Below are positions 11,040-24,215 of a DNA stretch of 64,000 nt, piece by piece. Source of the stretch: a bacterium (lineage in GTDB: Bacteria; Patescibacteriota; Dojkabacteria; GCA-016699595). The notes under the pieces are model-generated. The model was not told the DNA's origin and did no database searches. It saw nothing but the letters and a program-made list of their open reading frames with translations. The position numbers and the translations under genes were made by a program. The DNA lies in the NCBI GenBank assembly GCA_016699595.1, contig CP064982.1, positions 379,829-443,828 on the forward strand, written 5' to 3'. Numbering within the stretch: the stretch's first letter is position 1; the number at the start of each line of letters is the position of its first letter.

Positions 11040-11058
11040 TTTCTTGACAAATTCTTAT

Positions 11059-11142
11059 GGAGGGGTCGCATAGTTGGTCTAGTGCACAGTCCTGGAAAGA
11101 CTGCGTTCCAAAAGAACCGGAAGTTCGAATCTTCTCCCCTCC
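11059..11142 (+). tRNA. tRNA-Ser (anticodon GGA)
   Basis: Acceptor GGAGGGG/CCCCTCC, anticodon stem CAGTC/GACTG with loop CTGGAAA, long variable arm (GTTC..GAAC), T-loop TTCGAAT. Confidence 0.85.
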
Positions 11143-11268
11143 GAATTGGAAATATCTAGATAAAATAAAAAATTATCAAAAGGACTTTTCACTTTTAGTT
11201 TTCGAATATCTGTAATATGTGTCTATATTTGAGTTGTTTTGATATTTTTGTGGCTCAATAGTTCTTAC

Positions 11269-11348
11269 ACTATACCAAATAATAATAGTGTATAATATTT
11301 GTATAGATGATATAGGGAATTTAGTCGAACTTCGTATGTCCGAGAGTT
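11269..11348. repeat. Copy A (3' part only) of the ~170-bp AT-rich promoter-like repeat (family F1)
   Basis: CCAAATAATAATAGTGTATAATATTTGTATAGATGATATAGGGAATTTAGTCGAACTTCGTATGTCCGAGAGTT closely matches the copies at 19276, 20890, 21500 and 22213. Confidence 0.8.
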
Positions 11349-11396
11349 ATAATCAATTGACAGGCTAGCTAGAAAGATCTTCAAAGAAAGAGTAAT

Positions 11397-11705
11397 ATGA
11401 ATAATACAATGACAAAACAAAAAAATACCTTACTTATGTCTGTTATCTTAGTTTTGTTGATCCTTACAGTAATTGTAGTTGTCGCCAAAATTTCGCCTTA
11501 TAGATGTTGTGCTTGCCATCCAGATAGATATACTTTGTACCCAATTTCCTTTACGCTTTTTGAAAATCATTGGGCTCAATACATAGATTGTCATTGTCTG
11601 CCCGAAATGGGATGTGTTTTGTCTTTTTGGGTAATTCCGATTGATTTAATAGGATTAGTTGCACTTTTATCTGCAATCTTGTTTCACAAATTGAAAAAGA
11701 AGTGA
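11397..11705 (+). CDS. Small Cys-rich membrane protein (hypothetical)
   Basis: ORF with N-terminal TM helix and several Cys (CCACHPDRY, CHC). No known motif. Confidence 0.4.
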   Translation: MNNTMTKQKNTLLMSVILVLLILTVIVVVAKISPYRCCACHPDRYTLYPISFTLFENHWAQYIDCHCLPEMGCVLSFWVIPIDLIGLVALLSAILFHKLKKK

Positions 11706-11714
11706 TGGAAAAGA

Positions 11715-11885
11715 ACGCTCGCCTGTCAACTCTGAACTTTTTATTTGCTTCGCTACAGAACGTTGCACTAAAATTCAGCCCTTCAGGGAATATAACATGT
11801 GATAAAAGACTACAAAACCTTGCAGGATTCTCCATCCAAATTGGGCTATGCCCAACTTCTTTTATCCCTAAACGTTATGTGTAAT
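11715..11885. repeat. GC-richer intergenic element related to the F2/F3/F4 families (degenerate)
   Basis: Shares CGCTTCGCT, ACGTTGCACT and a terminal AACGTTATG (GTTATGT core at 11874-11880) with the other elements. Confidence 0.4.
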
Positions 11886-11922
11886 TGAGATAAAGCTGTT
11901 TTAATAACCACAATTTTCAAAT

Positions 11923-12621
11923 ATGACAATAAATGATGAAGTTCAAAAAATAATCGAAGAAGTAAATCGCCTCAATCACAAGATTGAGATGGTTTCTAAT
12001 GTAAAATCTGGCAAAGAAGCAACAGTCTATAAAGTTCTTTTAGACGATAAACTTGTGGCAATGAAGGTCTATAAAAAACCAGAAGAGAGATCCTTTAAAA
12101 ATACGGGACAATACTTAATGGGAAAATATTACAAGAAACCATCTGAAAGGAAAGCTGTGGCAAAAGGAAATAAATTTGCTAAAAAATTAAAACACCAAAA
12201 TTGGATTAGAAGAGAATATTTTATGCTTGAAAAGTTATATGAACATGGAGCCAAAATTCCAAAACCCATATTACATATTGAAGATGCTATATTTATGGAG
12301 TTATTAGGAAATCAAGATTTTGTGGCTCCTAGATTGTGCGATGTAATTCTGACAAAAGATGAAGCAGAAAGTGCTTATAAAAAGGTACTTGATACAATGA
12401 TTGTGTTTTGGAATTTTGGCATAGTGCATGCGGATTTATCTGAATACAACATTTTATGGTGGAATAATGAACCTTATATTATTGACTTTCCTCAGGCACT
12501 AGATAAAAAGACTAACCCAAATGTAAATGAAGTTTTGGATAGAGATTTGAGAAATATCACAAACTTTTTTGGCAAATTTATCAAAACTGATTTTGATGAA
12601 ATTAGAAAAGACTTTTCTTAA
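11923..12621 (+). CDS. RIO-type serine protein kinase
   Basis: RIO signature motifs: SGKEATVY (ATP-binding loop), IVHADLSEYNIL (catalytic loop), IIDFPQAL (metal-binding loop). Confidence 0.75.
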   Translation: MTINDEVQKIIEEVNRLNHKIEMVSNVKSGKEATVYKVLLDDKLVAMKVYKKPEERSFKNTGQYLMGKYYKKPSERKAVAKGNKFAKKLKHQNWIRREYFMLEKLYEHGAKIPKPILHIEDAIFMELLGNQDFVAPRLCDVILTKDEAESAYKKVLDTMIVFWNFGIVHADLSEYNILWWNNEPYIIDFPQALDKKTNPNVNEVLDRDLRNITNFFGKFIKTDFDEIRKDFS

Positions 12622-12677
12622 CTTGCTCACTATCGGTCGCACCAGATTGTACTCTCTCACTCCCACTGGTCGTTCGG

Positions 12678-12796
12678 GTCTGACAACACAATATATGCGC
12701 TTCGAGCCTTGCAGGCTCACACCCATATTGCGCTACAACTTATAATTTGATAAAATATAGATGTAACACAACATCGCATATACTGGAACGTTAGAT
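12678..12796. repeat. attC-like imperfect palindrome (family F2, long form)
   Basis: GTCTGAC - 7 nt - TATATGCG ... central perfect hairpin GAGCCT-tgc-AGGCTC ... CGCATATA - 7 nt - GTTAGAT (12790-12796). The 8-bp L boxes are perfectly complementary. The next ORF starts 24 bp after the GTT core. Confidence 0.55.
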
Positions 12797-12819
12797 GAAA
12801 TAATACTCAACTATTTTAC

Positions 12820-13218
12820 TTGTTTAATCACGTTAATATGACAAATCAAAGAAACACACTTTCGATAAGAGAAATGATGGAACTCTCAAACGAACTCTTT
12901 GAGCTGAATAAAGAAAAATGGACTCCTAAAACCCCAGAGTCAAATATCTACTGGGTTGGTTGGCTAGTCGCTGAGATCGGAGAAGTTATTGATATCGTTA
13001 AGAAAAAAGGAGTAGATAAAATAATGAATGACAAAGAGATTCGTATTGAAATGCTAGAGGAAATAACAGATTGCTACATGTATTTGGCGGATATTTTAAA
13101 TAGATATCAATATTCTCCAGAAGAGTTTTCGAAAGTGTACAAAGAAAAGATGGAATATAATATGAAAAGAGATTACTCGCAAGGAAAAACAAGTAAGGAT
13201 AAGAAAATCACGAAATAG
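12820..13218 (+). CDS. MazG-like nucleoside triphosphate pyrophosphohydrolase
   Basis: All-alpha NTP-PPase pattern with acidic motifs (VAEIGEV ... EEITDCYMYLADI). Confidence 0.5.
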   Translation: MFNHVNMTNQRNTLSIREMMELSNELFELNKEKWTPKTPESNIYWVGWLVAEIGEVIDIVKKKGVDKIMNDKEIRIEMLEEITDCYMYLADILNRYQYSPEEFSKVYKEKMEYNMKRDYSQGKTSKDKKITK

Positions 13219-13255
13219 TTGAGTATTACTCTCACTCCTAAGGTCGCTCGCCCTC

Positions 13256-13339
13256 GCCTAACAGCGGATATGAGGTTCAGCTCTTACAGAGCCTCAACCC
13301 AAACTGCTACGCAACTTTTCATATCCGCAAACGTTAGCC
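13256..13339. repeat. attC-like site (family F3): GCCTAAC-a-GCGGATATGA ... TCATATCCGC-aaac-GTTAGCC
   Basis: 84 bp. Inverse core GCCTAAC matches RYYYAAC. The 10-bp L boxes are perfectly complementary. CTAAC/GTTAG pair, with asymmetric 1- and 4-nt bulges. The right core GTTAGCC approximates GTTRRRY. Confidence 0.6.
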
Positions 13340-13386
13340 GACATATTTTTGAAAAATTTATATAATCTTATTTAATAATCTAAAAA

Positions 13387-13785
13387 ATGTTAAAAAAACA
13401 CAAAAAAATTATCGTTCTAATTGGTATCGCCTCCATATATTTTATATTAGTTTTTAGTCTGTTCAAATTTCATATCGTTGAGTATGTGTTCCAAAGGGTT
13501 GTTATGGCAAATAATCCTACGGTCTTCTTCTCATGCGGTACATTTGGAGATGAAGATCATTTAAACAAAATAATCGATGAAAAAAGAGACGAGAAGATTA
13601 CAACATTAAGAAAGTACCTATCTGAAAACAATGGTGATTTATATATAGAAGCTGTTGGAAGTAGATGCCCAAACAAATTCCAATTTGTAGCTGCTTTTGG
13701 AGGTGATACTCAAAGAGTTGAAATTGAACAGATACTAAAAGATCAAACAATAAATGGAACACCCGTTTTTTTACTTAATAGATAA
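13387..13785 (+). CDS. Hypothetical membrane-anchored protein
   Basis: ORF with an N-terminal TM helix. No motif recognised. Confidence 0.4.
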   Translation: MLKKHKKIIVLIGIASIYFILVFSLFKFHIVEYVFQRVVMANNPTVFFSCGTFGDEDHLNKIIDEKRDEKITTLRKYLSENNGDLYIEAVGSRCPNKFQFVAAFGGDTQRVEIEQILKDQTINGTPVFLLNR

Positions 13786-13839
13786 TATTATGGATAAATT
13801 TTTCAAAAATACGCAAGGCACGTTGCACTCTCACCCCGC

Positions 13840-13960
13840 TATCGCTCCGTTCGGGTCTGACAACACAATATATGCGCTTCGAGCCTTGCAGTTTCTCACC
13901 CATATTCCGCCGAAGTTTGATAAAATAAACTAAGGTATCGGCGTAACATCGCATATACTA
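13840..13960. repeat. F2-family GC-rich element (copy b; right core degenerate)
   Basis: CCGTTCGGGTCTGACAACACAATATATGCGCTTCGAGCCTTGCAG..CTCACCCATATT is near-identical to 12670-12730. Right arm CGCATATA is present but no GTTAGAT follows. Confidence 0.6.
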
Positions 13961-14088
13961 AAAACAGTATATTATATTTAAAAAATATATAATATATATA
14001 CTCATATTTGCTATATAGTCAAACATTCGCAAAGATGAGAGTTATCGGAAATTTCAAGCAATATTTTTTATACAATTAGCAAAGTTTA

Positions 14089-14505
14089 GTGAAAAATATG
14101 ACAAAGAAAGTTGTTATTGCCGGGAGCGCATCACTTCAAGAAAAAGTTTTGTTCTGGAAAAAGTTTTGGGAAGATAAAGGGTGTCTTGTGACAAATTGTC
14201 CTTTGCCAATAAAAAAGGAGAACTTTTTAGAAGAATATCCTAAGGTTCATACGGATTTTTTCAAAAATATCACAGAGGCGGATATTCTTTTTGTTATGAA
14301 TGAGGATAAAAATGGTATTACTGGATATCTCGGTGTGGAATCTTTTGCAGAAATGTGTTTTGGGGTTGCTCAAAACCTCATTCACAACAAAAATCTTGAG
14401 GTGATGCTTTTGCAAGAACCAAGTGAGCGTGTGCAATCATACGAAGAAGTAGTTTTGTGGTTAAAATTAGGCTGGATAAAATTGCACGACAAAAACATTG
14501 CTTGA
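14089..14505 (+). CDS. Hypothetical Rossmann-like protein (possibly nucleoside 2-deoxyribosyltransferase-like)
   Basis: VVIAGSAS ... ADILFVMNEDKNGITGYLGVESFAEMCFGVAQ pattern. Weak resemblance only. Confidence 0.25.
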   Translation: MKNMTKKVVIAGSASLQEKVLFWKKFWEDKGCLVTNCPLPIKKENFLEEYPKVHTDFFKNITEADILFVMNEDKNGITGYLGVESFAEMCFGVAQNLIHNKNLEVMLLQEPSERVQSYEEVVLWLKLGWIKLHDKNIA

Positions 14506-14751
14506 AAAATCAGATAACAAAACATATACGGTTCGCTCACAGATATTTTGCGTCCTTATTTTGCAAAAATATAAACACAACTGATTTATTATGTTGCTCA
14601 AAAATTAGAGAAATTCAGTAAGACTATCAAAACATTCCTAAATGCTAGGATTGTAGTACAAGTTCTTTTTCATTGTTTCCACACTCCAACTGAAAGATAT
14701 AATACTACATTCCATTCTTCATCGAGAAACATCATAAAGTCTCAGATTCTT

Positions 14752-15738
14752 TTACTTCTCCAATCTCCCTACTTCATTTGCACTTATCATACTGTCTCTA
14801 ATCTGACTTGCGATATCATTCATTCCGGACGGTGAATGTGGAAGCATGATTGTATTTGTTTTGCTACTCATGGAAATCTCTTTCAATGTGTCAAAGTATT
14901 GTGTCATTAGAACCAAATTCATCACATCTTTCGCAGTTGAACCGTGAACTGAACTTTGAAATTCCTCAACAGAATCTTTCAATCCTTGAATTATAGCTCT
15001 TCTTTGATCAGCAATACCTTTACCTTGCAATGCTTTCGATTGTGCTTCAGCTTCAGCTCTTTTGACTAGCAATATTCTTTCTGCTTCACCTTTCTCTGCA
15101 GCCGCAATTCGAAGTCTTTGTGCTGAATTTATCTCGTTCATTGATTCTTTGACCTTTGCATCTGGTTCAATATCGGTAACTAGTGCATTCACTATTCCAA
15201 AACCAAATTGTGTCATAGTTTCTTCCAACTCTTTTTTTACTGCAAGTGCTATTTCATCTTTGTTATCAAAAAGCTGGTCTAGTGTCATTTTGGGGACTTT
15301 CGCTCTAATGACATCATAAACATAAGAATTTATCTGTCTTGCAGGATCATTCAATTTATAAAATGCATCTGCAGCTTTTTGAGGTATGACAAAAAACTGA
15401 ACTGAAGTTGTCAAATGAACAAATACATTGTCCAGTGTCTTCGTTTCAGCCTTTACATTTAATTCTTGAACTCGAAAAGATAACTTTCCTGCCTTTTTTT
15501 CAACAAGAGGAATTTTCCAATTTAGACCAGCTGTTGCAATTCTGACAAATTTGCCAAATCTTTCAATCACTGCAGCAGTTTGCTGTTCAACCGTAAAAAG
15601 AATCGATGGGATAAAAATAAAAACTAATATCAATATGATGATGGGGATAATTATAAGTTCCATAGTAGTTAAGTTAGGATTTGTAAGTATTACATTATTT
15701 AAATTATTAAGAAACATTATACTGCTTTTGTACTGCAT
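14752..15738 (-). CDS. SPFH/band-7 (stomatin/flotillin-like) membrane protein
   Basis: N-terminal TM segment followed by an SPFH domain and a coiled-coil Ala/Glu-rich tail (QRLRIAAAEKGEAERILLVKRAEAEAQSKALQGK). The true start is probably an internal Met. Confidence 0.7.
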   Translation of the reverse strand: MQYKSSIMFLNNLNNVILTNPNLTTMELIIIPIIILILVFIFIPSILFTVEQQTAAVIERFGKFVRIATAGLNWKIPLVEKKAGKLSFRVQELNVKAETKTLDNVFVHLTTSVQFFVIPQKAADAFYKLNDPARQINSYVYDVIRAKVPKMTLDQLFDNKDEIALAVKKELEETMTQFGFGIVNALVTDIEPDAKVKESMNEINSAQRLRIAAAEKGEAERILLVKRAEAEAQSKALQGKGIADQRRAIIQGLKDSVEEFQSSVHGSTAKDVMNLVLMTQYFDTLKEISMSSKTNTIMLPHSPSGMNDIASQIRDSMISANEVGRLEK

Positions 15739-15881
15739 TTTTCAAGTAAAGTTACTAGTTGGAATTTCAAATGCGTTATCACAATTTATCTATAAAATCA
15801 TTTATAATTGTATAATTATCTGATATCATACTCAGGCTATAATGCTGAACTAATAATAAGTAACAGAACTTAAATAAATTT

Positions 15882-17357
15882 ATGTCAAATATCGGACAAT
15901 CACTACAACAAGTAAGAGAATTTAGAGTTCAAAAATTAAACAAGCTGAAGGAATTGGGATTTGACCCATATCCTGCTCGAGTTCAAAAAGACAAAAACAA
16001 TGCAGAACTTATAAATAACTTTGACGAATTGCAAGGGAAAGATTTTTTCATAACCGGAAGAATTGTCTCTATCCGAAGTTATGGTAAATTGTTGTTCCTT
16101 GATGTGCAAGATGAATCAGGCAAAATTCAATGCATTGGTATGCCACAAAATGTGATTGGACTAGAAACAAAATATTTAGAATTTGGACAGTTAGATCTTA
16201 TTGACAATGGAGATTTTGTAGAAGTCTTTGGGACTCTAGGCAAATCAAAAACTGGTGAAATCTCTATATTAGTCAAAAGCATCCGAATTATCACAAAGTC
16301 CCTTAGACCAATTCCAGATGAACTCAATGATGTAGAAGAAAGACAAAGAAAAAGATATCTGGATATAAATGTGAATGGATCAAAAGACAAACTTGACTTA
16401 CAAGCAAGATTTGAGAGAAGATCCAAGTTCTGGCAAGCAAACAGGGACTTCTTAAACTCCAAAGGTTTCATTGAGATGAATATGCCTGTTTTGGAACTCA
16501 CTACAGGAGGAGCTGATGCAAATCCATTTGTAACTCATATGGATGCTATAGACCAAGACTTTTACTTGCGTATTTCTCACGAATTACCACTCAAAAGGCT
16601 AATTGGAGCTGGCTACGAGAAAGTTTATGACATTGGTCCAAGATTCAGAAATGAAGGTTTTTCTGATGAACATTTGCCTGAGCATATTGCTATGGAATGG
16701 TACTGGGCATATGCTGATTTTCAAAAGGGAATGGAATTTATGGAAGAAATGTTTAAGTTTATCTCATATGAAGTTTGGGGCACGACAAAATTTGAAAACA
16801 TGAAAGGCTTTGAAGAAATAGATCTTGAAAAAAAATGGGAAGTTATAACTTATGAGCAAATTTTGCAAGATAGATTTGGAATTGATATTTGGAATGTTGA
16901 TTTGGACAAAGTGAATGTAGAACTTGCCAAGTTTGATGATAAAGCAGAAAATATTAATCGAGGTATTGACAAGCTTTGGAAGAAAATTCGAGCAACTATC
17001 GGAGGTCCAGTTTGGATGATTTATGAGCCTGCATTTCTTTCCCCACTTGCAAAGCCAAGTGATACTGACAAAAGAATAACAGAACGATTTCATCCCATAA
17101 TTGCTGGATCAGAACTTGGAAATGGATTTAGTGAATTGAATGACCCTCAACTTCAACTCCAGAATTTTTTGGAACAAGAAAAACTTAGAGAAGAAGGAGA
17201 TGCTGAGGCGCAAATGTTGGATGATGACTTTGTAGAAATGCTTGAGTACGGTATGCCTCCAACTTGTGGATGGGGACATGCAGAAAGAAATTTTTGGTTC
17301 TTTGAAAATGTTTCAGCAAGAGAAGGAGTGATTTTTCCACCTATGAGAAGAAAGTAA
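15882..17357 (+). CDS. lysS: Lysyl-tRNA synthetase (class II)
   Basis: OB anticodon-binding domain followed by the class II core (FRNEGFSDEHLPEHIAMEWYWAY, GGxxERxxM-like C-terminus). 491 aa. Confidence 0.9.
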   Translation: MSNIGQSLQQVREFRVQKLNKLKELGFDPYPARVQKDKNNAELINNFDELQGKDFFITGRIVSIRSYGKLLFLDVQDESGKIQCIGMPQNVIGLETKYLEFGQLDLIDNGDFVEVFGTLGKSKTGEISILVKSIRIITKSLRPIPDELNDVEERQRKRYLDINVNGSKDKLDLQARFERRSKFWQANRDFLNSKGFIEMNMPVLELTTGGADANPFVTHMDAIDQDFYLRISHELPLKRLIGAGYEKVYDIGPRFRNEGFSDEHLPEHIAMEWYWAYADFQKGMEFMEEMFKFISYEVWGTTKFENMKGFEEIDLEKKWEVITYEQILQDRFGIDIWNVDLDKVNVELAKFDDKAENINRGIDKLWKKIRATIGGPVWMIYEPAFLSPLAKPSDTDKRITERFHPIIAGSELGNGFSELNDPQLQLQNFLEQEKLREEGDAEAQMLDDDFVEMLEYGMPPTCGWGHAERNFWFFENVSAREGVIFPPMRRK

Positions 17358-18649
17358 TGTATTTTACCTCATTTTCTCAAAACACAAACTTCAAAAAATA
17401 CAAATTAGAAATATTAAATAAAGCTTGGTTTCAAGACATTGTTACAAACTTTGAAGATATCACAGCTTTGTCAAAAGAAGAAAGAGAGTTTTGCAAAACT
17501 CAATTTGACAATGAACTTCAAGAATTGAAAAATATCAAGTCAAATAGCCCAACAAAAACCGGCTCTGGAAGAATTATTTCAAAAAAGGCACAATCATTGG
17601 TCCAAACAGAGGAAAATTCCACATTGAAGTTTTCTCAGATTTTCAATGCCGAAGCTAGAGAAGAGTTCAAAAGTTCCAAATTAGAATTTGCAAAAATAAT
17701 AGATTTATCAGCTACTTTACATTTTGAACTAATTAAACTTCTATTTGACAAAGAATCAAATACTTGGAAATCTCTTTTCAAGCTTTATGATGGCAAGAAA
17801 ATTGAATCAGTTTTGATGAGATTTGAAGATGGTCGCAACTCAGTTTGCGTTAGTTCTCAAGTTGGTTGCCCTGTTGGTTGTATTTTTTGTGCTTCTGGTC
17901 AAATGGGATTTATGAGGAATCTAACCTCACAAGAGATTGTCGATCAAGTTTTATTTTGGGCTAGACTTATGAAGCTTATGCCCAAAAACTTGGAAAATGA
18001 TTTGCCTAACCAACAACCTACTTCCACTTCCAATCACTTTTTGAAGGAAAAAGATAATTTTGAAAAAGTTACAAACATAGTTTATATGGGAATGGGCGAA
18101 CCTATGTTGAATTATGAAAATGTAGTTGAAAGTTTGAAAATACTTACAAATCCAAATGAATTTGGTTTAGGAGACAGGCATATAACTTTGTCTAGTTCAG
18201 GTTATATACCACAACTTGAAAAGTATATGACCGAGGGAATGAAAACAAAGCTTGCAATTTCGCTTCACGCACCTAGTCAGGAACTTAGAGAAAAATTAAT
18301 GCCAGTTGCAAAAATTTATTCGCTTGATAAGTTGATGGAATTCATAAAGAAGTATGAGAAATATACCGGGAAAAGAATTAGTTATGAATATACCTTGATA
18401 GATCAGGTAAACGACACTCAAGAATGTGCAAGAAATTTGGCTAAGTTACTCAAAAATCGAGAGGCACATGTAAATTTGATACCTATGAATCCAATTGCTG
18501 AAGCAAAAGATTTGAGAAAATCAGATCTACGAAATGTTTATGCGTTTTATGAAACTTTGAAACATTTCAAAATTCCTACAACAATTAGAATCACCATGGG
18601 TGACAAAATACAAGCAGCTTGTGGTCAACTTGCAAACAAAAATGGTTAG
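17357..18649 (+). CDS. rlmN: 23S rRNA (adenine2503-C2)-methyltransferase RlmN (radical SAM)
   Basis: CVSSQVGCPVGCIFCASG radical-SAM Cys cluster, MGMGEPMLN motif. Start overlaps the lysS stop (TAATG). Confidence 0.85.
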   Translation: MYFTSFSQNTNFKKYKLEILNKAWFQDIVTNFEDITALSKEEREFCKTQFDNELQELKNIKSNSPTKTGSGRIISKKAQSLVQTEENSTLKFSQIFNAEAREEFKSSKLEFAKIIDLSATLHFELIKLLFDKESNTWKSLFKLYDGKKIESVLMRFEDGRNSVCVSSQVGCPVGCIFCASGQMGFMRNLTSQEIVDQVLFWARLMKLMPKNLENDLPNQQPTSTSNHFLKEKDNFEKVTNIVYMGMGEPMLNYENVVESLKILTNPNEFGLGDRHITLSSSGYIPQLEKYMTEGMKTKLAISLHAPSQELREKLMPVAKIYSLDKLMEFIKKYEKYTGKRISYEYTLIDQVNDTQECARNLAKLLKNREAHVNLIPMNPIAEAKDLRKSDLRNVYAFYETLKHFKIPTTIRITMGDKIQAACGQLANKNG

Positions 18650-18652
18650 TAT

Positions 18653-18737
18653 GGAGGGGTGACCGAGTGGTTGAAGGTACCGCTCTCGAAAAGCGGCATG
18701 GGGCAACTCATCGCGAGTTCGAATCTCGCCTCCTCCG
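18653..18737 (+). tRNA. tRNA-Ser (anticodon CGA)
   Basis: Acceptor GGAGGGG/CTCCTCC (one G.T), anticodon stem CCGCT/AGCGG with loop CTCGAAA, long variable arm, T-loop TTCGAAT. Confidence 0.85.
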
Positions 18738-18882
18738 TCGAGTTTTACTTTTTTCACAATTGGCTCTTGATATTATGGAAGATAACTGATTTATTGATTT
18801 GACATATTAAACTAAATACAGTACAATTAATGGTAAATTTGTAGTTTATTAATCTATAAAGCAAAAACATTCTTAAAGAAAT

Positions 18883-19218
18883 ATGGGGAAGAGACGTTAT
18901 CCAAAAGATCAGAAAAGTTTTGATAATGTATATTATGAGACATATGGTGATTATCGTGATAATGTCCTTTATCCAAAAGGGGCTTGGTCTTATCAAAAAA
19001 TCTTCCAGACAGCTTGTGTGGTCAAGAGTCAACAAGAACAATATAAAAAAGCTGGACAGCCTGTCAATCTAATGCTTAGAGAATGTTTGTTATTTCAAAT
19101 AATTCAAAAAGGTGGTATTAACGCAATAGACGCATGGTTAAAAAAGAATGATCCAGGACACTATCGACTTCGGGATATTGCAAACATGGATTGGAGTTGG
19201 TTGGATGAGTCAAGGTAA
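18883..19218 (+). CDS. Hypothetical protein
   Basis: ORF only. No motif. Confidence 0.35.
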   Translation: MGKRRYPKDQKSFDNVYYETYGDYRDNVLYPKGAWSYQKIFQTACVVKSQQEQYKKAGQPVNLMLRECLLFQIIQKGGINAIDAWLKKNDPGHYRLRDIANMDWSWLDESR

Positions 19219-19275
19219 TATAAGGTATAATAATATTACAGTTCTTCACGCAAATAATAAAATTAAGCGAACAGG

Positions 19276-19440
19276 GAAAACTTCTCATACAAGCAAAGGT
19301 TTAACTTCCAGTACTTTCAAAAACTTCGTAATTAGTTCTTTATGCATAACTTATATCACTGTTATACTACCCAATAATAGTGTATAATATTAGTATAGAT
19401 AATATACGCAATCTAGTCGGACTTCGTATATCCGAGAGTT
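19276..19440. repeat. Full-length copy B of the ~170-bp AT-rich promoter-like repeat F1
   Basis: AAACTTCTCATA.AAGCAAAGGTTTAACTTCCAGTACTTTCAAAAACTTC ... CCCAATAATAGTGTATAATATT ... TAGTCG.ACTTCGTATATCCGAGAGTT. About 88 % identical to copy E. Contains a TATAAT box. The next ATG is 42 bp downstream. Confidence 0.85.
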
Positions 19441-19482
19441 AGATGAAATCAAAAACAATTATATTTTTAAAAGCAAAAAGTT

Positions 19483-20295
19483 ATGAAAATCGCATTAACA
19501 AATCTGTGTAAATTAGAAGATTTTGCAAAACACAAGACTTATCAAGATGCAATAGGTTTTTTACATGAAGAAAATATTGAGTATCTTGATTTTTGTTCTG
19601 GTGAAAGTGATTTGGATAATTTAGTGGCAAAGTTTAATAAGTCATTGGATTCTGAGGCGGATATAATATGGATTGTTTGTGGAGGATGGTCATGTATTAA
19701 AACGTTAGAAAAAATTGATTGGGGAAAGGTGGTTGCAAGTAATAAAAAGTTTTATGGATTATCAGATTTTACTCACTTTTCCTCTAAGGCAGTTTCCTTG
19801 GGAATTACTTGTTACTATGGGCAAGGACTTGTGTACATTAAACAGTTTTTCCCAACAAATAATAGCCGTGAATTTATCGTAAATTTCTTAAAAACAGGGG
19901 ATGCTGGTTCTAGTATGGCAAAATCATTGTCTTCAAATACGGAAGATTTAGATATAAATAAGGTAAAAATAACAGGTGGACATATGCTCATATTCGCATT
20001 TATGCAAAATCAGATCAATATAAACTTACAAGAAAGATATCTATTTTTGGAATATCATCATGGGGCTAATGGTATAGAGTTAAAAGAGCTTGAATATTAT
20101 CTAGATCAAGTACTTTATGTAATAAAAAACAATTTACCGAAAGGATTTATTTTAGGAAGAAGTTTACTAAAAAATTTTGATGGAACAGAAATAAAAATAG
20201 AAGAAATAAATGAGTTTCTTGTTTCTAAATTAGAAAAGCTTAACTTACCAATCTATTATGTTGATCATTTTAATAACATTATAACTTTTTGCTAA
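19483..20295 (+). CDS. Possible LD-carboxypeptidase (peptidase S66 family)
   Basis: GLSDFTHF resembles the S66 nucleophile motif (GxSDxT). Weak overall. Confidence 0.35.
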   Translation: MKIALTNLCKLEDFAKHKTYQDAIGFLHEENIEYLDFCSGESDLDNLVAKFNKSLDSEADIIWIVCGGWSCIKTLEKIDWGKVVASNKKFYGLSDFTHFSSKAVSLGITCYYGQGLVYIKQFFPTNNSREFIVNFLKTGDAGSSMAKSLSSNTEDLDINKVKITGGHMLIFAFMQNQININLQERYLFLEYHHGANGIELKELEYYLDQVLYVIKNNLPKGFILGRSLLKNFDGTEIKIEEINEFLVSKLEKLNLPIYYVDHFNNIITFC

Positions 20296-20358
20296 ATATG
20301 GAAAATGTTTTTGACTCTCGCTCCTAAGGTCGCTCGCCCTAACGGGTCATCTAACAGT

Positions 20359-20454
20359 TGATATCTGTTCGCTTCGCACATCCAGACCGATGAGTTAAAT
20401 TTTAATTGAATGGTCGGGACGTCAGATATCAGCGAACGTTATGCGAATAAGGCT
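20359..20454. repeat. attC-like site (family F3, copy b): ATCTAAC-ag-TTGATATCTG ... CAGATATCA-gcgaac-GTTATGC
   Basis: Same architecture as 13256-13339 with different L-box sequence. The 9-bp boxes are perfectly complementary. The preceding CTCGCTCCTAAGGTCGCTCGCCCT is shared with 13231-13255. Confidence 0.55.
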
Positions 20455-20506
20455 CGGGTCAAAGTGAATAGAAAGATTTATATTAGTCAAGAATCAAGAT
20501 AATAAG

Positions 20507-20746
20507 ATGAAGTGGAAGAAATTTTTTAAATTCACAAAAACTCAGATTATTTCTATAATAATTTTAATGATATTGTCATTTCCTTTTTGGTTTCATTTAT
20601 CCTGTATTAATATGTATATTGAACCCAAATTATTTTATAGTCCTTCCAGTTGTGGATTACAATTCTCAGAATTCGTTATTTTGCTTTTAGGTTCATATTT
20701 TATTTCAATTATTATAGATTTTATAATCAGAAAATTCAAAGAATAA
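20507..20746 (+). CDS. Small membrane protein (hypothetical)
   Basis: 79-aa ORF with two hydrophobic helices. Confidence 0.35.
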   Translation: MKWKKFFKFTKTQIISIIILMILSFPFWFHLSCINMYIEPKLFYSPSSCGLQFSEFVILLLGSYFISIIIDFIIRKFKE

Positions 20747-20773
20747 AAATGCTTTTCTTAATTCATTTCTTTG

Positions 20774-20870
20774 AAGTCGCGCTTACTCAAGGGGACGCTT
20801 CGCTTTCGTCGCTATCGCTCCTTACCCTCGTATAACAAGGAAATTGCTCGGCTCGCAACTTTCCCAAGTT
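20774..20870. repeat. GC-rich element family F4 (copy a)
   Basis: CTCAAGGGGACGCTTCGCTTTCGTCGCTATCGCTCC..CCCTCGTATAACAAGG is related to 23960-24040 (CTCAAGGGGCGACTACGCTTTTCACTC..CTCGTACAACAGG). It shares CGCTATCGCTCC with 13840-13850. Confidence 0.55.
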
Positions 20871-20889
20871 TTTCTTCCACTTCGTTTCA

Positions 20890-21050
20890 GAAAAACTTCT
20901 CATATAAGCAAAGGTTTAACTTCCAGTACTTTCAAAAACTTCACAACTAGTGCTTCATACATAGTTTAGATACATTTGTATACTAACTAATGATAGTGTA
21001 TACTATTTGCATGGGATATTTTACAAAATTTAATTGAACTTCGTACATCC
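20890..21050. repeat. Copy C of AT-rich repeat F1 (variant middle module)
   Basis: Shares the 5' AAACTTCTCATATAAGCAAAGGTTTAACTTCCAGTACTTTCAAAAACTTC and 3' GAACTTCGTACATCC modules. The middle ACAACTAGTGCTTCATACATAGTTTAGATACATTTGTATACTAACTAAT is shared only with copy D. Confidence 0.8.
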
Positions 21051-21101
21051 TTAAATGCTAGACGAAATTTTCTTAACTTAATTACTACTACAATCAAAGT
21101 T

Positions 21102-21422
21102 ATGTCAAGGAACAATGGATTCATTATTATCTATATTACCCATCCTGATTTAGAAACTGCAAAGAAAATCGTGTCGTCTTTAATGAAGAGTCGTTTGATT
21201 GCTTGTGGCAACTTCTTTCCAATTCAAAATACATATTGGTGGAAAGGAAAAATTGAGCATTCTACAGAAGTTGTTTCTATTGTAAAGACTAACATGAAGA
21301 ATTGGGAACAAGTTAAGGCGGCGGTAATCAAACTTCATCCCTATGAAACGCCTTGTATTATTAAAATATCTGCATCTGCTAACAGTGATTATGTATCGTG
21401 GATAAATCAAGAAGTGCTATAA
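21102..21422 (+). CDS. cutA: Divalent-cation tolerance protein CutA
   Basis: CutA1 fold signature (IACGNFFP..NTYWWKG..KLHPYETPCII). Confidence 0.75.
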   Translation: MSRNNGFIIIYITHPDLETAKKIVSSLMKSRLIACGNFFPIQNTYWWKGKIEHSTEVVSIVKTNMKNWEQVKAAVIKLHPYETPCIIKISASANSDYVSWINQEVL

Positions 21423-21498
21423 AAGTCGGAGTCAATATTGTCTAACATAGCATATCTGACTTTGCTAATGCTTCTTCATACTCAAGATGATGCCGAAA

Positions 21499-21632
21499 CG
21501 TGTGACTTCCAGTACTTTCAAAAACTTCACAACTAGTGCTTCATACATAATTTAGATACATTTGTATACTAACTAATAATAGTGTATAATGTTTGCATAG
21601 ATAATATACGAAATCTAGTCGAACTTAGTATC
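21499..21632. repeat. Copy D of AT-rich repeat F1 (5'-truncated)
   Basis: Begins at ACTTCCAGTACTTTCAAAAACTTCACAACTAGTGCTTCATACATAATTTAGATACATTTGTATACTAAC ... AGTGTATAATGTTTGCATAGATAATATACGAAATCTAGTCGAACTT. Confidence 0.8.
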
Positions 21633-21650
21633 AACTAGTGTTTTTTATTT

Positions 21651-22100
21651 ATGCACATTAACCTTACTTGGTTCCACTTAAAGAAAGTTTGGAAATTAAC
21701 AATTCCGTTACAAACACTCCTAATTATATTTCTGTTTGTATTCAGATCGGTACAAGCATTCAACATTCAAACAGGATTAGTAAGTGAGCTTCCAAAATTT
21801 GTAACAATTTTCGCACCAATTTATGAAGAAGTTATTTTTCGTGGTCTATGCCTTGCAATGTTTCTTAAATATTTCAATCGTAACAAAGCAATTATTCTGT
21901 CATCACTAATTTTCGGTTTGTGGCATTTGAAAAATTCCACCCATCTTAGTAACTTCGCGTTGTTATATCAAGTCAGTTATGCGATGTTTTTAATAGGTCC
22001 AATATTGGCTTATATCACCATAAAAACAAAAACTATTTGGCCTGGGATCATTCTTCACTATGTAAATAACATTATCTCCTCACTTATCCCTATTATCTAA
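21651..22100 (+). CDS. CPBP-family (CAAX/Abi) intramembrane metalloprotease
   Basis: EEVIFRG (EExxxR), FGLWH and HYVNN motifs in consecutive TM helices. Confidence 0.75.
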   Translation: MHINLTWFHLKKVWKLTIPLQTLLIIFLFVFRSVQAFNIQTGLVSELPKFVTIFAPIYEEVIFRGLCLAMFLKYFNRNKAIILSSLIFGLWHLKNSTHLSNFALLYQVSYAMFLIGPILAYITIKTKTIWPGIILHYVNNIISSLIPII

Positions 22101-22123
22101 GAAACAAGTTTACTATTCCAGGA

Positions 22124-22192
22124 CGTTTCGTTGCTGCTTCGCTTTCACTCCGTTCGGGTCGGACAATACAATAAATACTGGAACGTTATATG
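22124..22192. repeat. F2-family element, short form (hairpin core absent)
   Basis: CCGTTCGGGTCGGACAATACAATA|AATACTGGAACGTTATATG corresponds to the two ends of 12670-12796 with the central ~95 bp missing. Confidence 0.6.
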
Positions 22193-22212
22193 ATAAAATA
22201 ACAAGGAAATGA

Positions 22213-22379
22213 GCGAAACTTCTCATATAAGCAAAGGTTTAACTTTCAGTACTTTCAAAAACTTCGTAATTAATTCTTTATACATAACTTACATACACTG
22301 TTATACTACCCAATAATAGTGTATAATATTTGCATGGATAATATACGAAGTTTAGTCGAACTTCGCATATCTGATAGTT
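22213..22379. repeat. Full-length copy E of AT-rich repeat F1
   Basis: See copy B. The next ATG is 56 bp downstream. Confidence 0.85.
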
Positions 22380-22435
22380 GGCTGGAATAGTATGAACCTG
22401 CCCCTGAAATAATAGAAACATTTAAAAATAACACC

Positions 22436-23206
22436 ATGACATTAATAATACCAATTTTAGGACTAATAACACTTCTTTTTCTTTCGGGTTTGAGAATAGC
22501 ACAAGAATATCAACGAGCTATTGTATTCAGACTTGGACGCTTTAAATCAGTAAAAGGACCAGGACTTTATTGGATAATTCCATTTATTGAAAGACAGCAA
22601 AAAATTGACATAAGAACAAAGACTGTTGATTTAGAACAACAAGAAACCATTACCAAAGACAGTGTAACCATAAAAGTTAATGCTGTACTTTGGTTTAAAA
22701 TTATCAACCCTGAAAGCTCAATTATTAAAGTTGCTGATTACAATAAAGCTGTTTATCAATTTTCAGTTTCAGCATTAAGAAATATAATTGGGCAACATAG
22801 CTTGGACGAAGTTTTGAGGGACCGAGAACAGATAAATTCTAACTTACAAAAAATTGTTGACCAAACGACAGAACCCTGGGGCGTTAAAATTGAAATGGTA
22901 GAAATGAAAGATGTTGAAATTCCAGAAGGAATGCAAAGAGCAATGGCACGGGAAGCAGAAGCAATTAGAGAAAAAAGGGCAAGAATTGTAAAAGCAGAAG
23001 CAGAATTAGATGCTTCCATAAAATTGACACAAGGTGCTAAAGAAATGGAAGGAAGCCCAATTGCATTAGAGTTAAGAAGGATGCAAATGCTTTCTGAAAT
23101 TGGAATTGACAATAACACAACGACTATTGTTTTAGTGCCATCAGACTTTACAAATGCAGCCAAAAGTTTTACAGAATTAGTTACAAACAAGAAATCAAGT
23201 CAATAA
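22436..23206 (+). CDS. SPFH/band-7 family protein (stomatin/HflKC-like)
   Basis: N-terminal TM helix, then QEYQRAIVFRLGRFKSVKGPGLYWIIPFIE, typical of SPFH domain proteins, and a C-terminal coiled coil. Confidence 0.8.
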   Translation: MTLIIPILGLITLLFLSGLRIAQEYQRAIVFRLGRFKSVKGPGLYWIIPFIERQQKIDIRTKTVDLEQQETITKDSVTIKVNAVLWFKIINPESSIIKVADYNKAVYQFSVSALRNIIGQHSLDEVLRDREQINSNLQKIVDQTTEPWGVKIEMVEMKDVEIPEGMQRAMAREAEAIREKRARIVKAEAELDASIKLTQGAKEMEGSPIALELRRMQMLSEIGIDNNTTTIVLVPSDFTNAAKSFTELVTNKKSSQ

Positions 23207-23416
23207 AGCCACTACAGCCAACATCAGTTTGGCAAAAGCAGGGCAGACGGAAGTAATTGAGCATTTGTACTTCTATCAATATTTGCATTATATTTAGGCT
23301 GACGGCTTTCAAAGATCTGCCTTGGCCAAAATGTAACAGTATATGAAATTGAAAATTGGCTAGAATAAGATAAAAACAGTCAAATTTATAATGTTTTACC
23401 TACTCTCTTAAATATT

Positions 23417-23941
23417 ATGATCGAAATAGAAAAAACTTACTTAGCAAAAAAGCTTCCTAAAGATTTGACAAGTTGCAAATTCAATGAGATTATTGATCTG
23501 TATATTCCCAAATCTAGCGAGCAACCAAAATTGAGGCTTAGAAAACATGGTGATAAGTTTGATTTGACCAAAAAAGAGCATGTAAATAGTGGAGACGCTT
23601 CACATCAAGAAGAGCAAACAATAATTCTTACCGAAACTGAATTTAATATCTTAAATCAACAACTCGAAGGAAAGAGAGTTCACAAAATAAGATATTTTTA
23701 TGATTATAAAGATAGAACTGCTGAATTTGATATTTTTCAAGATAGTTTAGCAGGTCTTGTAGTTGTTGATTTTGAATTTGCAACTTTAGAAGAAAAAGAC
23801 AATTTTCAAATGCCTGATTTTTGTCTTGCAGATATAACTCAAGAGGTTTTTATTGCAGGTAGAATGATTTGCGGGAAATCATATGAAGATATTGAAAGTA
23901 ATCTAAGCAAGTTTCAATATAGTAAGTTATTTCTCGAATAA
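23417..23941 (+). CDS. CYTH-domain (triphosphate tunnel metalloenzyme) protein
   Basis: N-terminal ExExK motif (MIEIEKTYL), length and beta-barrel-like pattern typical of CYTH. Confidence 0.6.
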   Translation: MIEIEKTYLAKKLPKDLTSCKFNEIIDLYIPKSSEQPKLRLRKHGDKFDLTKKEHVNSGDASHQEEQTIILTETEFNILNQQLEGKRVHKIRYFYDYKDRTAEFDIFQDSLAGLVVVDFEFATLEEKDNFQMPDFCLADITQEVFIAGRMICGKSYEDIESNLSKFQYSKLFLE

Positions 23942-23959
23942 ATTTTTCTTTTGAATCAA

Positions 23960-24040
23960 TAGTGACGCTAGTTTTCAACTCAAGGGGCGACTACGCTTTT
24001 CACTCTACTTTGCTACATTCACTCTCGTACAACAGGCATT
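23960..24040. repeat. GC-rich element family F4 (copy b)
   Basis: See 20774-20870. Confidence 0.5.
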
Positions 24041-24215
24041 AAGAGAAAATTAGTTAGTATCATATACTTGATTTATGATAAAATTATTTATCCTATCAAT
24101 TCATCAGTAACTATCAGTACAATACTTTCAAAATTTGACTAAACATACTAACTAAATTCTGGCTAGATTCCAAAACCACTTGTTTGCAAAAAATGGAAAC
24201 AAATTATAAGTTTTT

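Follow-up and report, generated by a model that had tools for sequence, protein, structure and literature searches.

Among described systems, the closest to the locus reported here are the sedentary chromosomal integrons and the CALINs, which are clusters of attC sites without an integrase (Cury et al. 2016, Néron et al. 2022). Like the arrays of CPR bacteria analysed below, integrons and CALINs form unidirectional series of single-ORF cassettes, each measuring about 0.5-1 kb, with unrelated functions. Every cassette is closed by an imperfect palindrome whose AAC…GTT is invariant and whose structure is conserved more than its sequence; in both, crossover occurs at the right-core GTT, the recombinase, transcribed divergently, is found beside an attI-like site, sites of one lineage are homogeneous in sequence, and integrase decay leaves an orphan array. 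The CPR arrays differ by R-L box spacers of 1 and 4 nt (RAAC) instead of about 5 and 6, by extra bases placed on the other arm, by a conserved 40-75-nt extension outside the palindrome, by the promoter-like leader that several cassettes possess, and by their hosts, CPR bacteria of which some use genetic code 25. Comparison can also be made with CTX-phage-type IMEX, in which a single-stranded hairpin is integrated by XerCD at dif: in CPR, an Xer-family recombinase without insertion would likewise act on a folded, duplex-mimicking single-stranded hairpin and exchange one strand into a fixed chromosomal site. However, single-gene cassettes in long arrays stand here in place of phage genomes, phage genes are absent, and the target adjoins the recombinase gene. 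The XerS/difSL, XerH/difH and archaeal XerA/dif systems resemble the CPR one by a recombination site near the recombinase gene and by the XerA size and domain layout of the protein, whereas their sites are duplex 11-6-11 dif for dimer resolution and are not followed by hairpin-bearing cassette arrays. In the same way, pdif modules of Acinetobacter plasmids are small gene modules bounded by Xer-type recombinase sites, but pdif sites alternate in orientation and are short XerC/XerD duplexes, not long hairpins in a single orientation. Finally, REP/BIME, ERIC and MITE-like palindromes are also imperfect, about 100 nt long and located in intergenic transcribed DNA, yet they are dispersed genome-wide in either orientation, lack a link with a tyrosine recombinase and do not bound mobile gene units.

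The window, that is the whole 64-kb stretch of DNA analysed, comes from an ultra-small genome of a CPR (Patescibacteria) bacterium and harbors a region at 11.1-24.2 kb which we interpret, with a probability of roughly 80%, as what is left of two cassette arrays belonging to an integron-like gene-capture system that is specific to CPR and devoid of a classical integron integrase. The system looks integron-like without such an integrase because related sites adjoin an Xer-like recombinase and mark the points at which cassettes are swapped; our literature search returned no description of such a system in CPR. As proposed in the earlier note, the ORFs of this region are mostly short, encoded on the plus strand and mutually unrelated in function, with the exception of a minus-strand SPFH gene that lies in the middle of the region with lysS and a radical-SAM gene, called rlmN in the earlier note. 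Pfam matches include RIO kinase, S66-like, CutA, CPBP/Rce1-like, SPFH and STAND-like NTPase proteins, together with a weak dATP/dGTP pyrophosphohydrolase-like match; several ORFs have no Pfam match, among them the one at 23417-23941 formerly called CYTH. Thirteen spacers of 143-357 nt, 12 of them of at least 168 nt, separate the genes between 11.0 and 24.2 kb, and nine of them (the two tRNA-Ser-bearing spacers being excluded) reach 50% GC or more over a 40-nt stretch. The rest of the window has just three internal spacers exceeding 200 nt, none of which contains a 40-nt stretch above 47% GC, so that within these 64 kb long spacers with GC-rich stretches are confined to 11.1-24.2 kb (Table 1).

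Table 1. Features of the two arrays, in order along the window (R2, covariance model of the site family).
Feature	Position	Strand	Evidence
tRNA-Ser(GGA), left boundary of array 1	11058..11144	+	ARAGORN, Rfam
Xer/XerA-like recombinase pseudogene remnant, beside tRNA-Ser at head of array 1	11178..11281	-	tblastn, blastn
Leader copy P1: promoter-like -35/-10 boxes, hairpin, then GAGAGTTATAA	11265..11357	+	repeat family D2; alignment
ORF of 102 aa, array 1 cassette	11397..11705	+	no Pfam match
attC-like site 1, ATATAAC…AAAC-GTTATGT	11790..11880	+	R2 41.2 bits, E=7e-7
RIO-type kinase cassette ORF	11923..12621	+	Pfam RIO1, 8.7e-42
attC-like site 2, TGACAAC…GAAC-GTTAGAT	12681..12796	+	R2 49.6 bits, E=1e-8
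MazG-like cassette ORF, weakly dATP/dGTP pyrophosphohydrolase-like	12838..13218	+	PF04447, 2.8e-4, below family cutoff
attC-like site 3 (13256-13339) with conserved C-rich 5' extension ACTCTCACTCCTAAGGTCGCTCGCCCT	13226..13339	+	R2 59.9 bits, E=4e-11
ORF of 132 aa, array 1 cassette	13387..13785	+	no Pfam match
attC-like site 4 (13858-13972) with 5' extension	13784..13972	+	R2 23.5 bits, E=0.007
ORF of 138 aa, last of array 1, no site downstream	14089..14505	+	sequence
tRNA-Ser(CGA), left boundary of array 2	18652..18739	+	ARAGORN, Rfam
Leader copy P2, after right core (GTTTAAC) of decayed site; ends GAGAGTTAGATGAAAT	19278..19449	+	repeat family, alignment
S66 (LD-carboxypeptidase)-like cassette ORF	19483..20295	+	Pfam 5.2e-9
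attC-like site 5 (20349-20444) with 5' extension	20312..20444	+	R2 70.9 bits, E=1.5e-13
Decayed site, L027 subfamily, GTATAAC…GTTTAAC	20826..20924	+	81% identical to L027 sites; weak fold
Leader copy P3	20893..21060	+	repeat family, alignment
Decayed site, GTCTAAC…AAAC-GTGTGAC	21440..21506	+	R2 11.9 bits, sub-threshold; sequence
Leader copy P4	21479..21651	+	repeat family, alignment
Collapsed site 2/4 copy, palindrome centre deleted, right end GGAACGTTATAT retained	22140..22191	+	repeat families D4, D20; R2 11.6 bits
Leader copy P5	22216..22388	+	repeat family, alignment
Degenerate palindrome, variant right core AACAGTATATGAAAT as in site 4	23220..23350	+	sequence reading only
Left half-site only, …CTCTCGTACAAC, end of array 2	23985..24035	+	alignment A1

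Five of these spacers hold imperfect palindromes of 84-116 nt with the layout xxxxAAC-A-[11 bp]…[11 bp]-RAAC-GTTRnnn, in all five of which 1 nt separates the left AAC from the stem and RAAC separates the stem from GTT. Sites 1, 2, 3 and 5 fit the palindrome architecture described previously exactly; site 4 has a degenerate right core (AACAGTAT instead of AACGTTAT) and is therefore probably inactive. Since AAC…7-bp stem…GTT by itself occurs at least as often as expected by chance (66 matches versus 47±11 in shuffles), the significance of the site family comes from the full geometry and the sequence profile. Nine AT-rich metagenome contigs carry a 20-mer that flanks two window sites on their 5' side, and a covariance model (R2) trained on 15 metagenome sites only, the window sites being left out, finds all five window sites on the plus strand (23.5-70.9 bits) and nothing significant elsewhere in the window (next best 16 bits, E=0.37). 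Run on class 1 integrons and on some 100 kb of other CPR loci, this model gives no match at E<0.1. The window sites therefore belong to the metagenome-contig family, with which they share site modules at 75-93% nucleotide identity; no cassette protein is common to the window and the related contigs. Site 1 is 75% identical over 147 nt to L023. Site 3 shares 79.5% identity with the site at 6245-6331 of L022, the L-box changes between them being compensatory, and site 4 is 86% identical over 124 nt to L019 1147-1270 and, across 63 nt, 94% identical to site 2 (repeat family D5). Site 5, the best preserved, has 92.6% identity over 135 nt to L017 and carries the 20-mer common to the nine contigs. 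Over 28 sites, 13 of which were not in the R2 training set, the L-box is 93% paired, changes on both sides occur in 10 of 11 pairs, and double-change cells number 100 against 34±4 in shuffles (0/500 reach 100) with 27-38% pairing in slid controls, statistics that are inflated both by the choice of training sites through a scan demanding a perfect 6-bp stem and by the fitting of alignment A5 to the model. Compensatory changes keep the stem conserved.

The earlier note expected a full palindrome at each junction, which does not hold: array 2 keeps a single intact site, and its other sites are collapsed, truncated or degenerate, the palindrome at 23220-23350 folding no better than shuffles. The remaining spacers of the region contain truncated site copies and five copies (P1-P5) of a second repeat that had been overlooked, a leader module some 170 bp long, which begins at the right end of the decayed site 20826-20924 in one case and which, judging from its sequence, would have a promoter function.

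In the related contigs, arrays begin 60-150 bp upstream of the gene of an Xer/XerA-like tyrosine recombinase of 270-284 aa, transcribed divergently from the array, and start with an attI-like site (…nnGTTRnnnGAAAT). Such divergent arrays with R2 matches adjoin the recombinase in at least five independent contigs (L022, L024, L027, L030 and L031), with L029 as a sixth, weaker case, and the attI-like motif is present in L026 even though this contig is cut 97 nt upstream of the recombinase. The window was previously said to encode no tyrosine recombinase, and this is accurate for intact genes; no attI-like motif occurs in the 64 kb either. Nevertheless, a minus-strand pseudogene remnant at the head of array 1 retains the last 29-35 codons of such a gene, the codons of the catalytic Tyr and of a Gln being now stops, and ends abruptly where leader P1 starts. 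By tblastn, the remnant ELLSHKNIKTTQI*THITDIRKLKVKSPF aligns with the L022 C-terminus KLLGHSNIRTTQLYTQVTNTMLRNIRSPF (E=0.002), and by blastn it matches the 3' end of the L027 recombinase gene with 73% identity across 111 nt.

Cassette turnover exactly at GTT cores, the decisive test set earlier, is observed in relatives. Indeed, a gene + site unit of 979 bp is 99.9% identical between L024 and L019/L025, its identity beginning at the GTT of the preceding site and stopping at the GTTA of its own site, while the preceding site itself is the attI-like one beside the recombinase in L024 and another attC-like site in L019. This is the one clean example found, and in it a gene was exchanged together with its site, with boundaries at GTT cores. 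Taken with the membership of the window sites in the R2 family, the adjacency of the recombinase in relatives and the remnant in the window, this turnover supports the initial proposal of ORF-then-site cassettes in integrase-less arrays.

It is very unlikely that these arrays are classical CALINs, in which ordinary attC sites would be served by a canonical IntI with its additional domain encoded elsewhere, the Xer-like neighbour being incidental. This reading would fit the general R''-L''…L'-R' arrangement with its invariant AAC and GTT, the crossover at GTT and the full-length alignment of one window site to the class 1 model, but the canonical attC check suggested beforehand essentially failed with our proxy, a model (R1) built from 16 class 1 attC sites: its best window match is site 1, aligned full-length (15.9 bits, E=0.11), all other window sites are missed, and 0 of about 25 related sites are found at E<1 in 79 kb of related arrays, and the class 1 and CPR models do not cross-detect sites. 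DNA folding gave z=-3.6 (bottom strand), -2.7 and -7.3 for sites 1-3. The bulge lies on the arm opposite the canonical extrahelical bases, none being present on the L'' arm, and the spacer geometry is 1×4 nt versus about 5×6. Furthermore, the recombinase that directly adjoins the arrays, of which the window remnant is a representative, lacks the IntI-specific insertion (around patch III) and scores 192.8 bits against the integron-integrase profile, below the cutoff of 265; PMC9668308, citing Messier & Roy (2001), reports the IntI-specific domain as necessary for integron recombination. Failure of the class 1 model and absence of this domain indicate that the system is integron-like and does not belong to the integron/attC family as currently defined. 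Least probable of all is that the palindromes function at the RNA level, with no gene mobility, as structured intergenic repeats specific to the lineage, be they REP/BIME-, ERIC- or MITE-like elements or terminator/stabiliser hairpins of 3' UTRs; the REP/BIME variant had been put forward in the earlier note. In favor of this view, the palindromes always share the orientation of the gene before them and sit in 3' UTRs, the C-rich extension outside them is conserved, and an RNA hairpin would also predict compensatory changes. However, the moving unit includes the gene and ends at GTT cores, a recombinase gene with an attI-like GTT site serves as anchor for the arrays, sites occupy just two blocks within 64 kb, the stem sequence varies between copies unlike in MITEs, and the hairpins, which match no Rfam family, are not followed by a T-run.

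Another explanation, which we regard as possible albeit rather unlikely, refines the mechanism without denying cassette capture: the recombinase would be the ordinary single Xer of the cell, involved in chromosome-dimer resolution, and the "attI" its adjacent dif, as in XerS/difSL and XerH/difH, cassettes exploiting Xer by folding into a dif-mimicking hairpin like CTX phage and accumulating at dif. XerA is the best family match of the recombinase (NF040815, 235.9 bits for a cutoff of 220) and XerA structures are its closest solved relatives (1e-44), the IntI insertion is missing, and all 8 contexts examined have a site adjoining the recombinase gene. The family is very large, with more than 5,000 proteins at E<1e-40 and thousands of members of about 270 aa across CPR, and some copies reside among core genes, near def/ftsZ in L026 and about 3.5 kb from dnaA in L028, where no array was detected; given this family size and the array-less L028 copy, the array-linked recombinase may be a housekeeping Xer. 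On the other hand, it is about as near to IntI1 (2.7e-39) and VchIntIA (8e-41) as to XerA and much nearer to them than to XerD (~1e-24 to 1e-27), the attI-like cores resemble the integron simple site (xxxAAC-nn-GTTxxxx), and an 11-6-11 dif layout is not evident by eye at these cores.

According to the integron-like reading that we favor, a cassette would comprise a short leader, one ORF, a C-rich extension of 40-75 nt and an imperfect palindrome of 84-116 nt, several cassettes bringing their own repeated promoter-like leader. In intact relatives, cassettes would be exchanged by crossing over at the right-core GTT; if integrons and CTX phage are taken as models, the site would work as a folded single strand, the recombinase would exchange one strand, and the junction would be resolved by replication. 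The window would correspond to a decayed state of such a system, in which about 30 codons of the recombinase gene survive as a pseudogene stub, the GTT of one site is gone and most array 2 sites have collapsed. This loss of recombinase, core and sites suggests that the arrays of the window are probably frozen, unless an intact recombinase acts on them from elsewhere in the 762-kb genome.

The GC-richer spacers noticed on first inspection are indeed confined to 11–24 kb of the window, as our survey of spacer length and GC content bears out. This AT-rich stretch (GC content about 32%) from an uncultured CPR bacterium has 13 spacers of 143–357 nt within 11.0–24.2 kb, 12 of which measure at least 168 nt. 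Leaving aside the two spacers that hold a tRNA-Ser gene, nine of them contain 40 consecutive nt with 50% GC or more; over the remainder of the window, internal spacers longer than 200 nt number just three, and the GC content of 40 consecutive nt does not rise past 47% in any of them. The genes of the two arrays and of their surroundings are listed in the table. One ORF of array 2 had been called CYTH, an assignment for which the Pfam search of this ORF returned no match, and PADLOC gave no convincing defence match for ten cassette proteins. The closest relatives of LysS are 57–65% identical, Ca. Dojkabacteria among them, and synteny around lysS is not kept in these nearest relatives. Exact-protein look-ups of window genes matched the same organism alone, in short contigs with unchanged gene order, and no exact-protein record was found for CutA. 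On the scale of the whole window, gene orientation and GC skew switch jointly at about 28.6 kb and about 61.6 kb, with plus-strand genes and positive skew up to the first switch, minus-strand genes and negative skew up to the second, and plus-strand genes again thereafter. The 28.6-kb switch was considered as a terminus marker and ruled out because the second switch is only 33 kb off, which is too near for the two to be origin and terminus of a 762-kb genome. A GC-rich direct repeat, with copies 95% identical and 156 nt apart, sits within a long minus-strand ORF whose surroundings are AT-rich.

Complete imperfect palindromes occupy four of the array spacers, and a fifth palindrome duplicates the second but has a degenerate right core. 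In array 1, four sites lie inside 2.2 kb; array 2 retains a single intact site beside remnants, its remaining junctions holding only collapsed, truncated or degenerate copies. In the common geometry, xxxxAAC and one A precede an 11-bp stem, which a variable centre separates from the complementary stem, and after this come RAAC and GTTRnnn. All 28 sites compared keep AAC and GTT without exception, and the window palindromes, when folded as single-stranded DNA, form extended hairpins that AAC/GTT closes (z-scores between -1.3 and -7.3). A scan of the window with the bare AAC…7-bp stem…GTT pattern found it not above chance, and a generic inverted-repeat search was swamped by chance pairs in this AT-rich DNA. 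Since the bare pattern is no rarer than chance, a profile test of the family was needed.

A 20-mer (CTCCTAAGGTCGCTCGCCCT) taken as query from the 5' flank conserved at two window sites has exact matches in nine AT-rich JGI/NCBI metagenome contigs, in each of which homology begins at ACTCTCG…, spans the palindrome and ends just after AACGTT(A), with divergence beyond. The covariance model R2, trained on 15 sites from this nine-contig set and on no window sequence, detects exactly five sites in the window, all on the plus strand (70.9, 59.9, 49.6, 41.2, and 23.5 bits), the next best window match being at 16 bits (E = 0.37 over 64 kb), and it gave nothing at E < 0.1 either on about 100 kb of other CPR loci or on class 1 integrons. 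Window and contigs have only the site modules in common, at 75–93% nucleotide identity, and share no cassette protein. Over the 28 sites, the L-box/stem is 93% paired, 10 of the 11 pairs display both-side (compensatory) changes, and 100 double-change cells are observed versus 34 ± 4 in shuffles, with 27–38% pairing in slid controls, all figures being subject to the facts that the R2 training sites were chosen by a scan demanding a perfect 6-bp stem and that the alignment itself was fitted to the model. A scan of IMG/VR with two motifs gave no match, and Rfam 15, searched at gathering and at permissive thresholds (E up to 5), returned tRNAs only and matched neither palindromes nor leader modules.

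Outside the palindrome, a conserved C-rich extension of 40–75 nt is present in the window as in L017–L025, a set of the related metagenome loci; it carries ACTCTCGCTCCTAAGGTCGCTCGCCCT… and at times begins with GGATAAATTTTTCAAAAA straight after the stop codon. Our guesses would be a tract resembling Rho-utilisation sites, or else an accessory binding site. A hidden minus-strand or small ORF running through this 5' extension was rejected, the similarity being at the DNA and not at the protein level.

Features of the window and of the related loci, with positions
Feature	Sequence	Position	Remark
Single ORF	window	213-5993	~1,926 codons, at window start
Upstream of array 1	window		recO, then tRNA-Ser(GGA)
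Recombinase remnant	window	11264-11178	minus strand
Array 1 genes	window		five, short, plus strand: 102-aa ORF, RIO kinase, weakly MazG-like ORF, 132-aa ORF, 138-aa ORF
Palindromes, array 1	window	11790-11880; 12681-12796; 13256-13339; 13858-13972	last is the copy of the second
Between arrays	window		SPFH gene (minus strand), lysS, radical-SAM gene, tRNA-Ser(CGA)
Array 2 genes	window		seven, short, plus strand: 111-aa ORF, S66-like, 79-aa ORF, CutA, CPBP, SPFH, ORF formerly called CYTH
Palindrome, array 2	window	20349-20444	
After array 2	window		STAND-like gene
Leader modules (~170 bp)	window	11265-11357; 19278-19449; 20893-21060; 21479-21651; 22216-22388	five copies
C-rich extension	window	13226-13255; 20312-20348	
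43-nt direct repeat	window	56536-56578; 56692-56734	
attI-like region, type 1	L022	1985-2101	
attI-like region, type 1	L026	1-97	
attI-like region, type 1	L027	3557-3649	
attI-like region, type 2	L024	2137-2288	
attI-like region, type 2	L031	773-886	
Y1 transposase gene	L029	1197-1820	IS200/IS605 type (Pfam Y1_Tnp)

Among the relatives, the locus L022 encodes a 277-aa tyrosine recombinase on the minus strand, divergent from plus-strand cassettes that carry five R2 sites and include a GNAT acetyltransferase, an α/β-hydrolase and a DUF4440 protein; array-linked recombinases in the relatives span 270–284 aa. The L022 enzyme matches IntI1 at 2.7e-39 and XerD at 1e-27 and, among solved structures, XerA at 1e-44, VchIntIA at 8e-41 and XerD at 3.5e-24. 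Within NCBIfam, it passes the XerA equivalog NF040815 (235.9 bits, cutoff 220) and reaches 192.8 bits, in two stretches and below the cutoff of 265, with the integron integrase model TIGR02249. Its alignment to IntI1 shows a gap of about 45 aa, where the IntI-specific insertion is missing. This domain, located near patch III, is described as defining for IntI and necessary for recombination (archaeal-integron paper, PMC9668308), and the array-linked recombinases of the relatives do not have it. Six more homologues found by exact sequence (L026–L031) were examined: R2 sites of 35–46 bits occur in the divergent arrays of L027 and L030, L031 has an R2 site of 34–39 bits at the contig end, L029 a weak one of 21 bits, the L026 contig extends only 97 nt upstream of its recombinase gene, and the L028 recombinase lies about 3.5 kb from dnaA with no array detected. 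In L029, a transposase gene stands directly downstream of the recombinase gene. The family counts more than 5,000 CPR proteins at E < 1e-40, and the array-linked recombinase may be the ordinary Xer of its CPR hosts.

In all eight loci examined, nnGTTRnnn(G/A)AAAT is found 60–150 nt upstream of the recombinase gene. Two conserved types of attI-like sequence were seen, CCTGCRACnnGTT (L022, L026, and L027) and CGGATAGAAGnGAGTT (L024 and L031), and the 11-6-11 layout of dif is not evident by eye in these regions. RnnnGAAAT follows both types, and many cassettes start likewise. The L024 homologue, 43% identical, is intact only with TGA read as Gly: its gene has five in-frame TGA in 277 codons, two of them at Gly positions of the KGxKGxKDR box, and one of these two aligns with Gly in AKGRKDR of L022 and in GKGSKDR of IntI1. 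The host of L024 therefore uses genetic code 25. Long ORFs in L017, L020, L023, L024 and L025 likewise appear only with TGA as sense, and the site modules of these loci are near-identical to those of code-11 genomes, the window included; the possession of common modules by code-11 and code-25 hosts points to gene flow across a genetic-code boundary.

Movement of a whole unit is visible among these relatives. A 979-bp stretch is common to L024 and L019/L025, from different samples, with 99.9% identity. The identity starts at GTTGGGAG, upstream of which stand an attI-like sequence beside the recombinase gene in L024 and another attC-like site in L019, and it ends at …AAACGTTA, beyond which the contexts differ. 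In integron terms, this unit is a gene cassette: it comprises a leader, a 244-codon ORF with zero in-frame TGA in L024, and its own site, and the crossover falls at the GTT cores. The cassette turnover exactly at GTT cores that the earlier note had asked for is thus observed in relatives only, and in this one clean example.

The same note's statement that the window has no tyrosine recombinase is right for an intact gene in 64 kb and wrong for a C-terminal stub. Directly after tRNA-Ser(GGA), the minus strand encodes ELLSHKNIKTTQI*THITDIRKLKVKSPF, which the C-terminus of the L022 recombinase (KLLGHSNIRTTQLYTQVTNTMLRNIRSPF) matches in tblastn at E = 0.002 and in which the catalytic Tyr codon has become a stop. 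The stub also aligns with the 3' end of the L027 recombinase gene, at 73% identity across 111 nt, and ends abruptly at the start of the first leader module. From this stub and from the absence of an attI-like motif in the window, we infer that array 1 is an integron-like element minus its recombinase and attI-like site. No recombinase remnant accompanies array 2 and its sole intact site.

Leader modules, which had escaped notice before, lie upstream of five cassettes and are 74–94% identical. Each is preceded by GTTTAAC, the right core of a decayed L027-subfamily site, contains a -35/-10-like pair, TTGTAT/TGTTAT-N17-TGTATAAT, within an inverted repeat, and has at its 3' end a small hairpin plus GAGAGTTAGATGAAAT, resembling the right end of a short site. 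The module was not found in 15 related loci nor in IMG/VR. Judging from these motifs, the modules may be cassette leaders that bear a promoter, or else promoter cassettes without an ORF, a promoter role that we only infer since a consensus scan for promoters and terminators (66 matches versus 57 ± 8) is uninformative in this AT-rich DNA. The start of leader copy P4 was also considered as a clean recombination junction and discarded, the alignment showing homology that extends upstream.

Several readings of these elements were weighed. The most direct, canonical attC sites, was examined with R1, a covariance model of 16 aligned attC sites from class 1 integrons of nine plasmid loci that stood in for IntegronFinder's attC model. 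R1 gives 28–72 bits to its own training sites and 36 bits to an untrained attC (orfF); its best window match, the first palindrome of array 1, on the correct strand and at full length, obtains 15.9 bits (E = 0.11), the other window sites remain below 9 bits, and none of the sites of the related arrays appears at E < 1. By this class 1 proxy, the window sites are not canonical attC. The L''-arm extrahelical bases and the unpaired central spacer of about 5×6 nt expected of integron attC sites are not seen: the spacers of CPR sites are 1 nt and 4 nt (RAAC), the bottom strands of window sites fold with a perfect stem, the bulge of 3–4 nt falling on the 5' arm, and an extra base, when present in CPR sites, falls in L' and not in L'', whereas folded bottom strands of real attC sites have an internal loop that is nearly symmetric, and their single-base bulges lie on the 3' arm. 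Wobble pairs (16 favouring the bottom strand versus 8 the top) are not decisive for the folding strand. The proposed CALIN status, with sites less than 4 kb apart and no intact integrase in 64 kb, stands only if CPR sites count as attC-like.

Structured repeats of REP/BIME type, the alternative put forward originally, or of MITE type would be dispersed in both orientations as near-identical copies and would not be linked to gene mobility, yet the sites occupy only two blocks of the window, all on the plus strand and with stems that differ in sequence, and the mobile unit contains a gene. That both arrays follow a tRNA-Ser gene might suggest tRNA-derived att sites, a possibility rejected as the elements gave no tRNA-like match and the tRNA linkage is inconsistent in relatives. 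We favour, with a probability of about 80%, reading the region as a pair of arrays, decayed and without an integrase, that belong to an integron-like system specific to CPR. Like integrons, this system has a structured 3' site on each cassette with crossover at GTT, a recombinase and attI-like site that head the array in relatives, the array being divergent from the recombinase, and an imperfect palindrome R''-L''…L'-R' with conserved AAC/GTT in which structure is kept over sequence. Unlike integrons, it combines a recombinase without the IntI domain, sites barely scored by a canonical-type model (the class 1 proxy R1) and R-L spacers of 1×4 nt instead of about 5×6 nt. A Xer/dif system of XerA type would call, besides the XerA equivalog match seen for the L022 enzyme, for a duplex 11-6-11 dif site and for a single copy per genome at the terminus.

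What defines an integron is an integrase that carries a special extra domain; integrons are reported from many bacterial phyla and some Archaea, and present integron tools require the IntI domain and a canonical attC model. In the full-text literature library searched, no integron-like cassette arrays or integron integrase are described in CPR. We would give even odds to a wider proposal, namely a widespread and undescribed CPR "proto-integron" made of a Xer/XerA-like enzyme, hairpin cassettes with a 1×4-nt spacer/AACGTT core, and modules crossing codes 11 and 25. An insertion-less recombinase, possibly the cell's own Xer, would then capture single-gene cassettes beside its own gene. If so, Xer/dif recombination and classical integrons would be bridged by a living intermediate that current integron finders overlook, and chromosome-dimer resolution and integrons would have in it a candidate for their evolutionary link. 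Such an insertion-less Xer-like cassette system would show how accessory genes are gained and shuffled in tiny symbiotic genomes, with the region in the window as a decayed remnant and a record of past gene capture.
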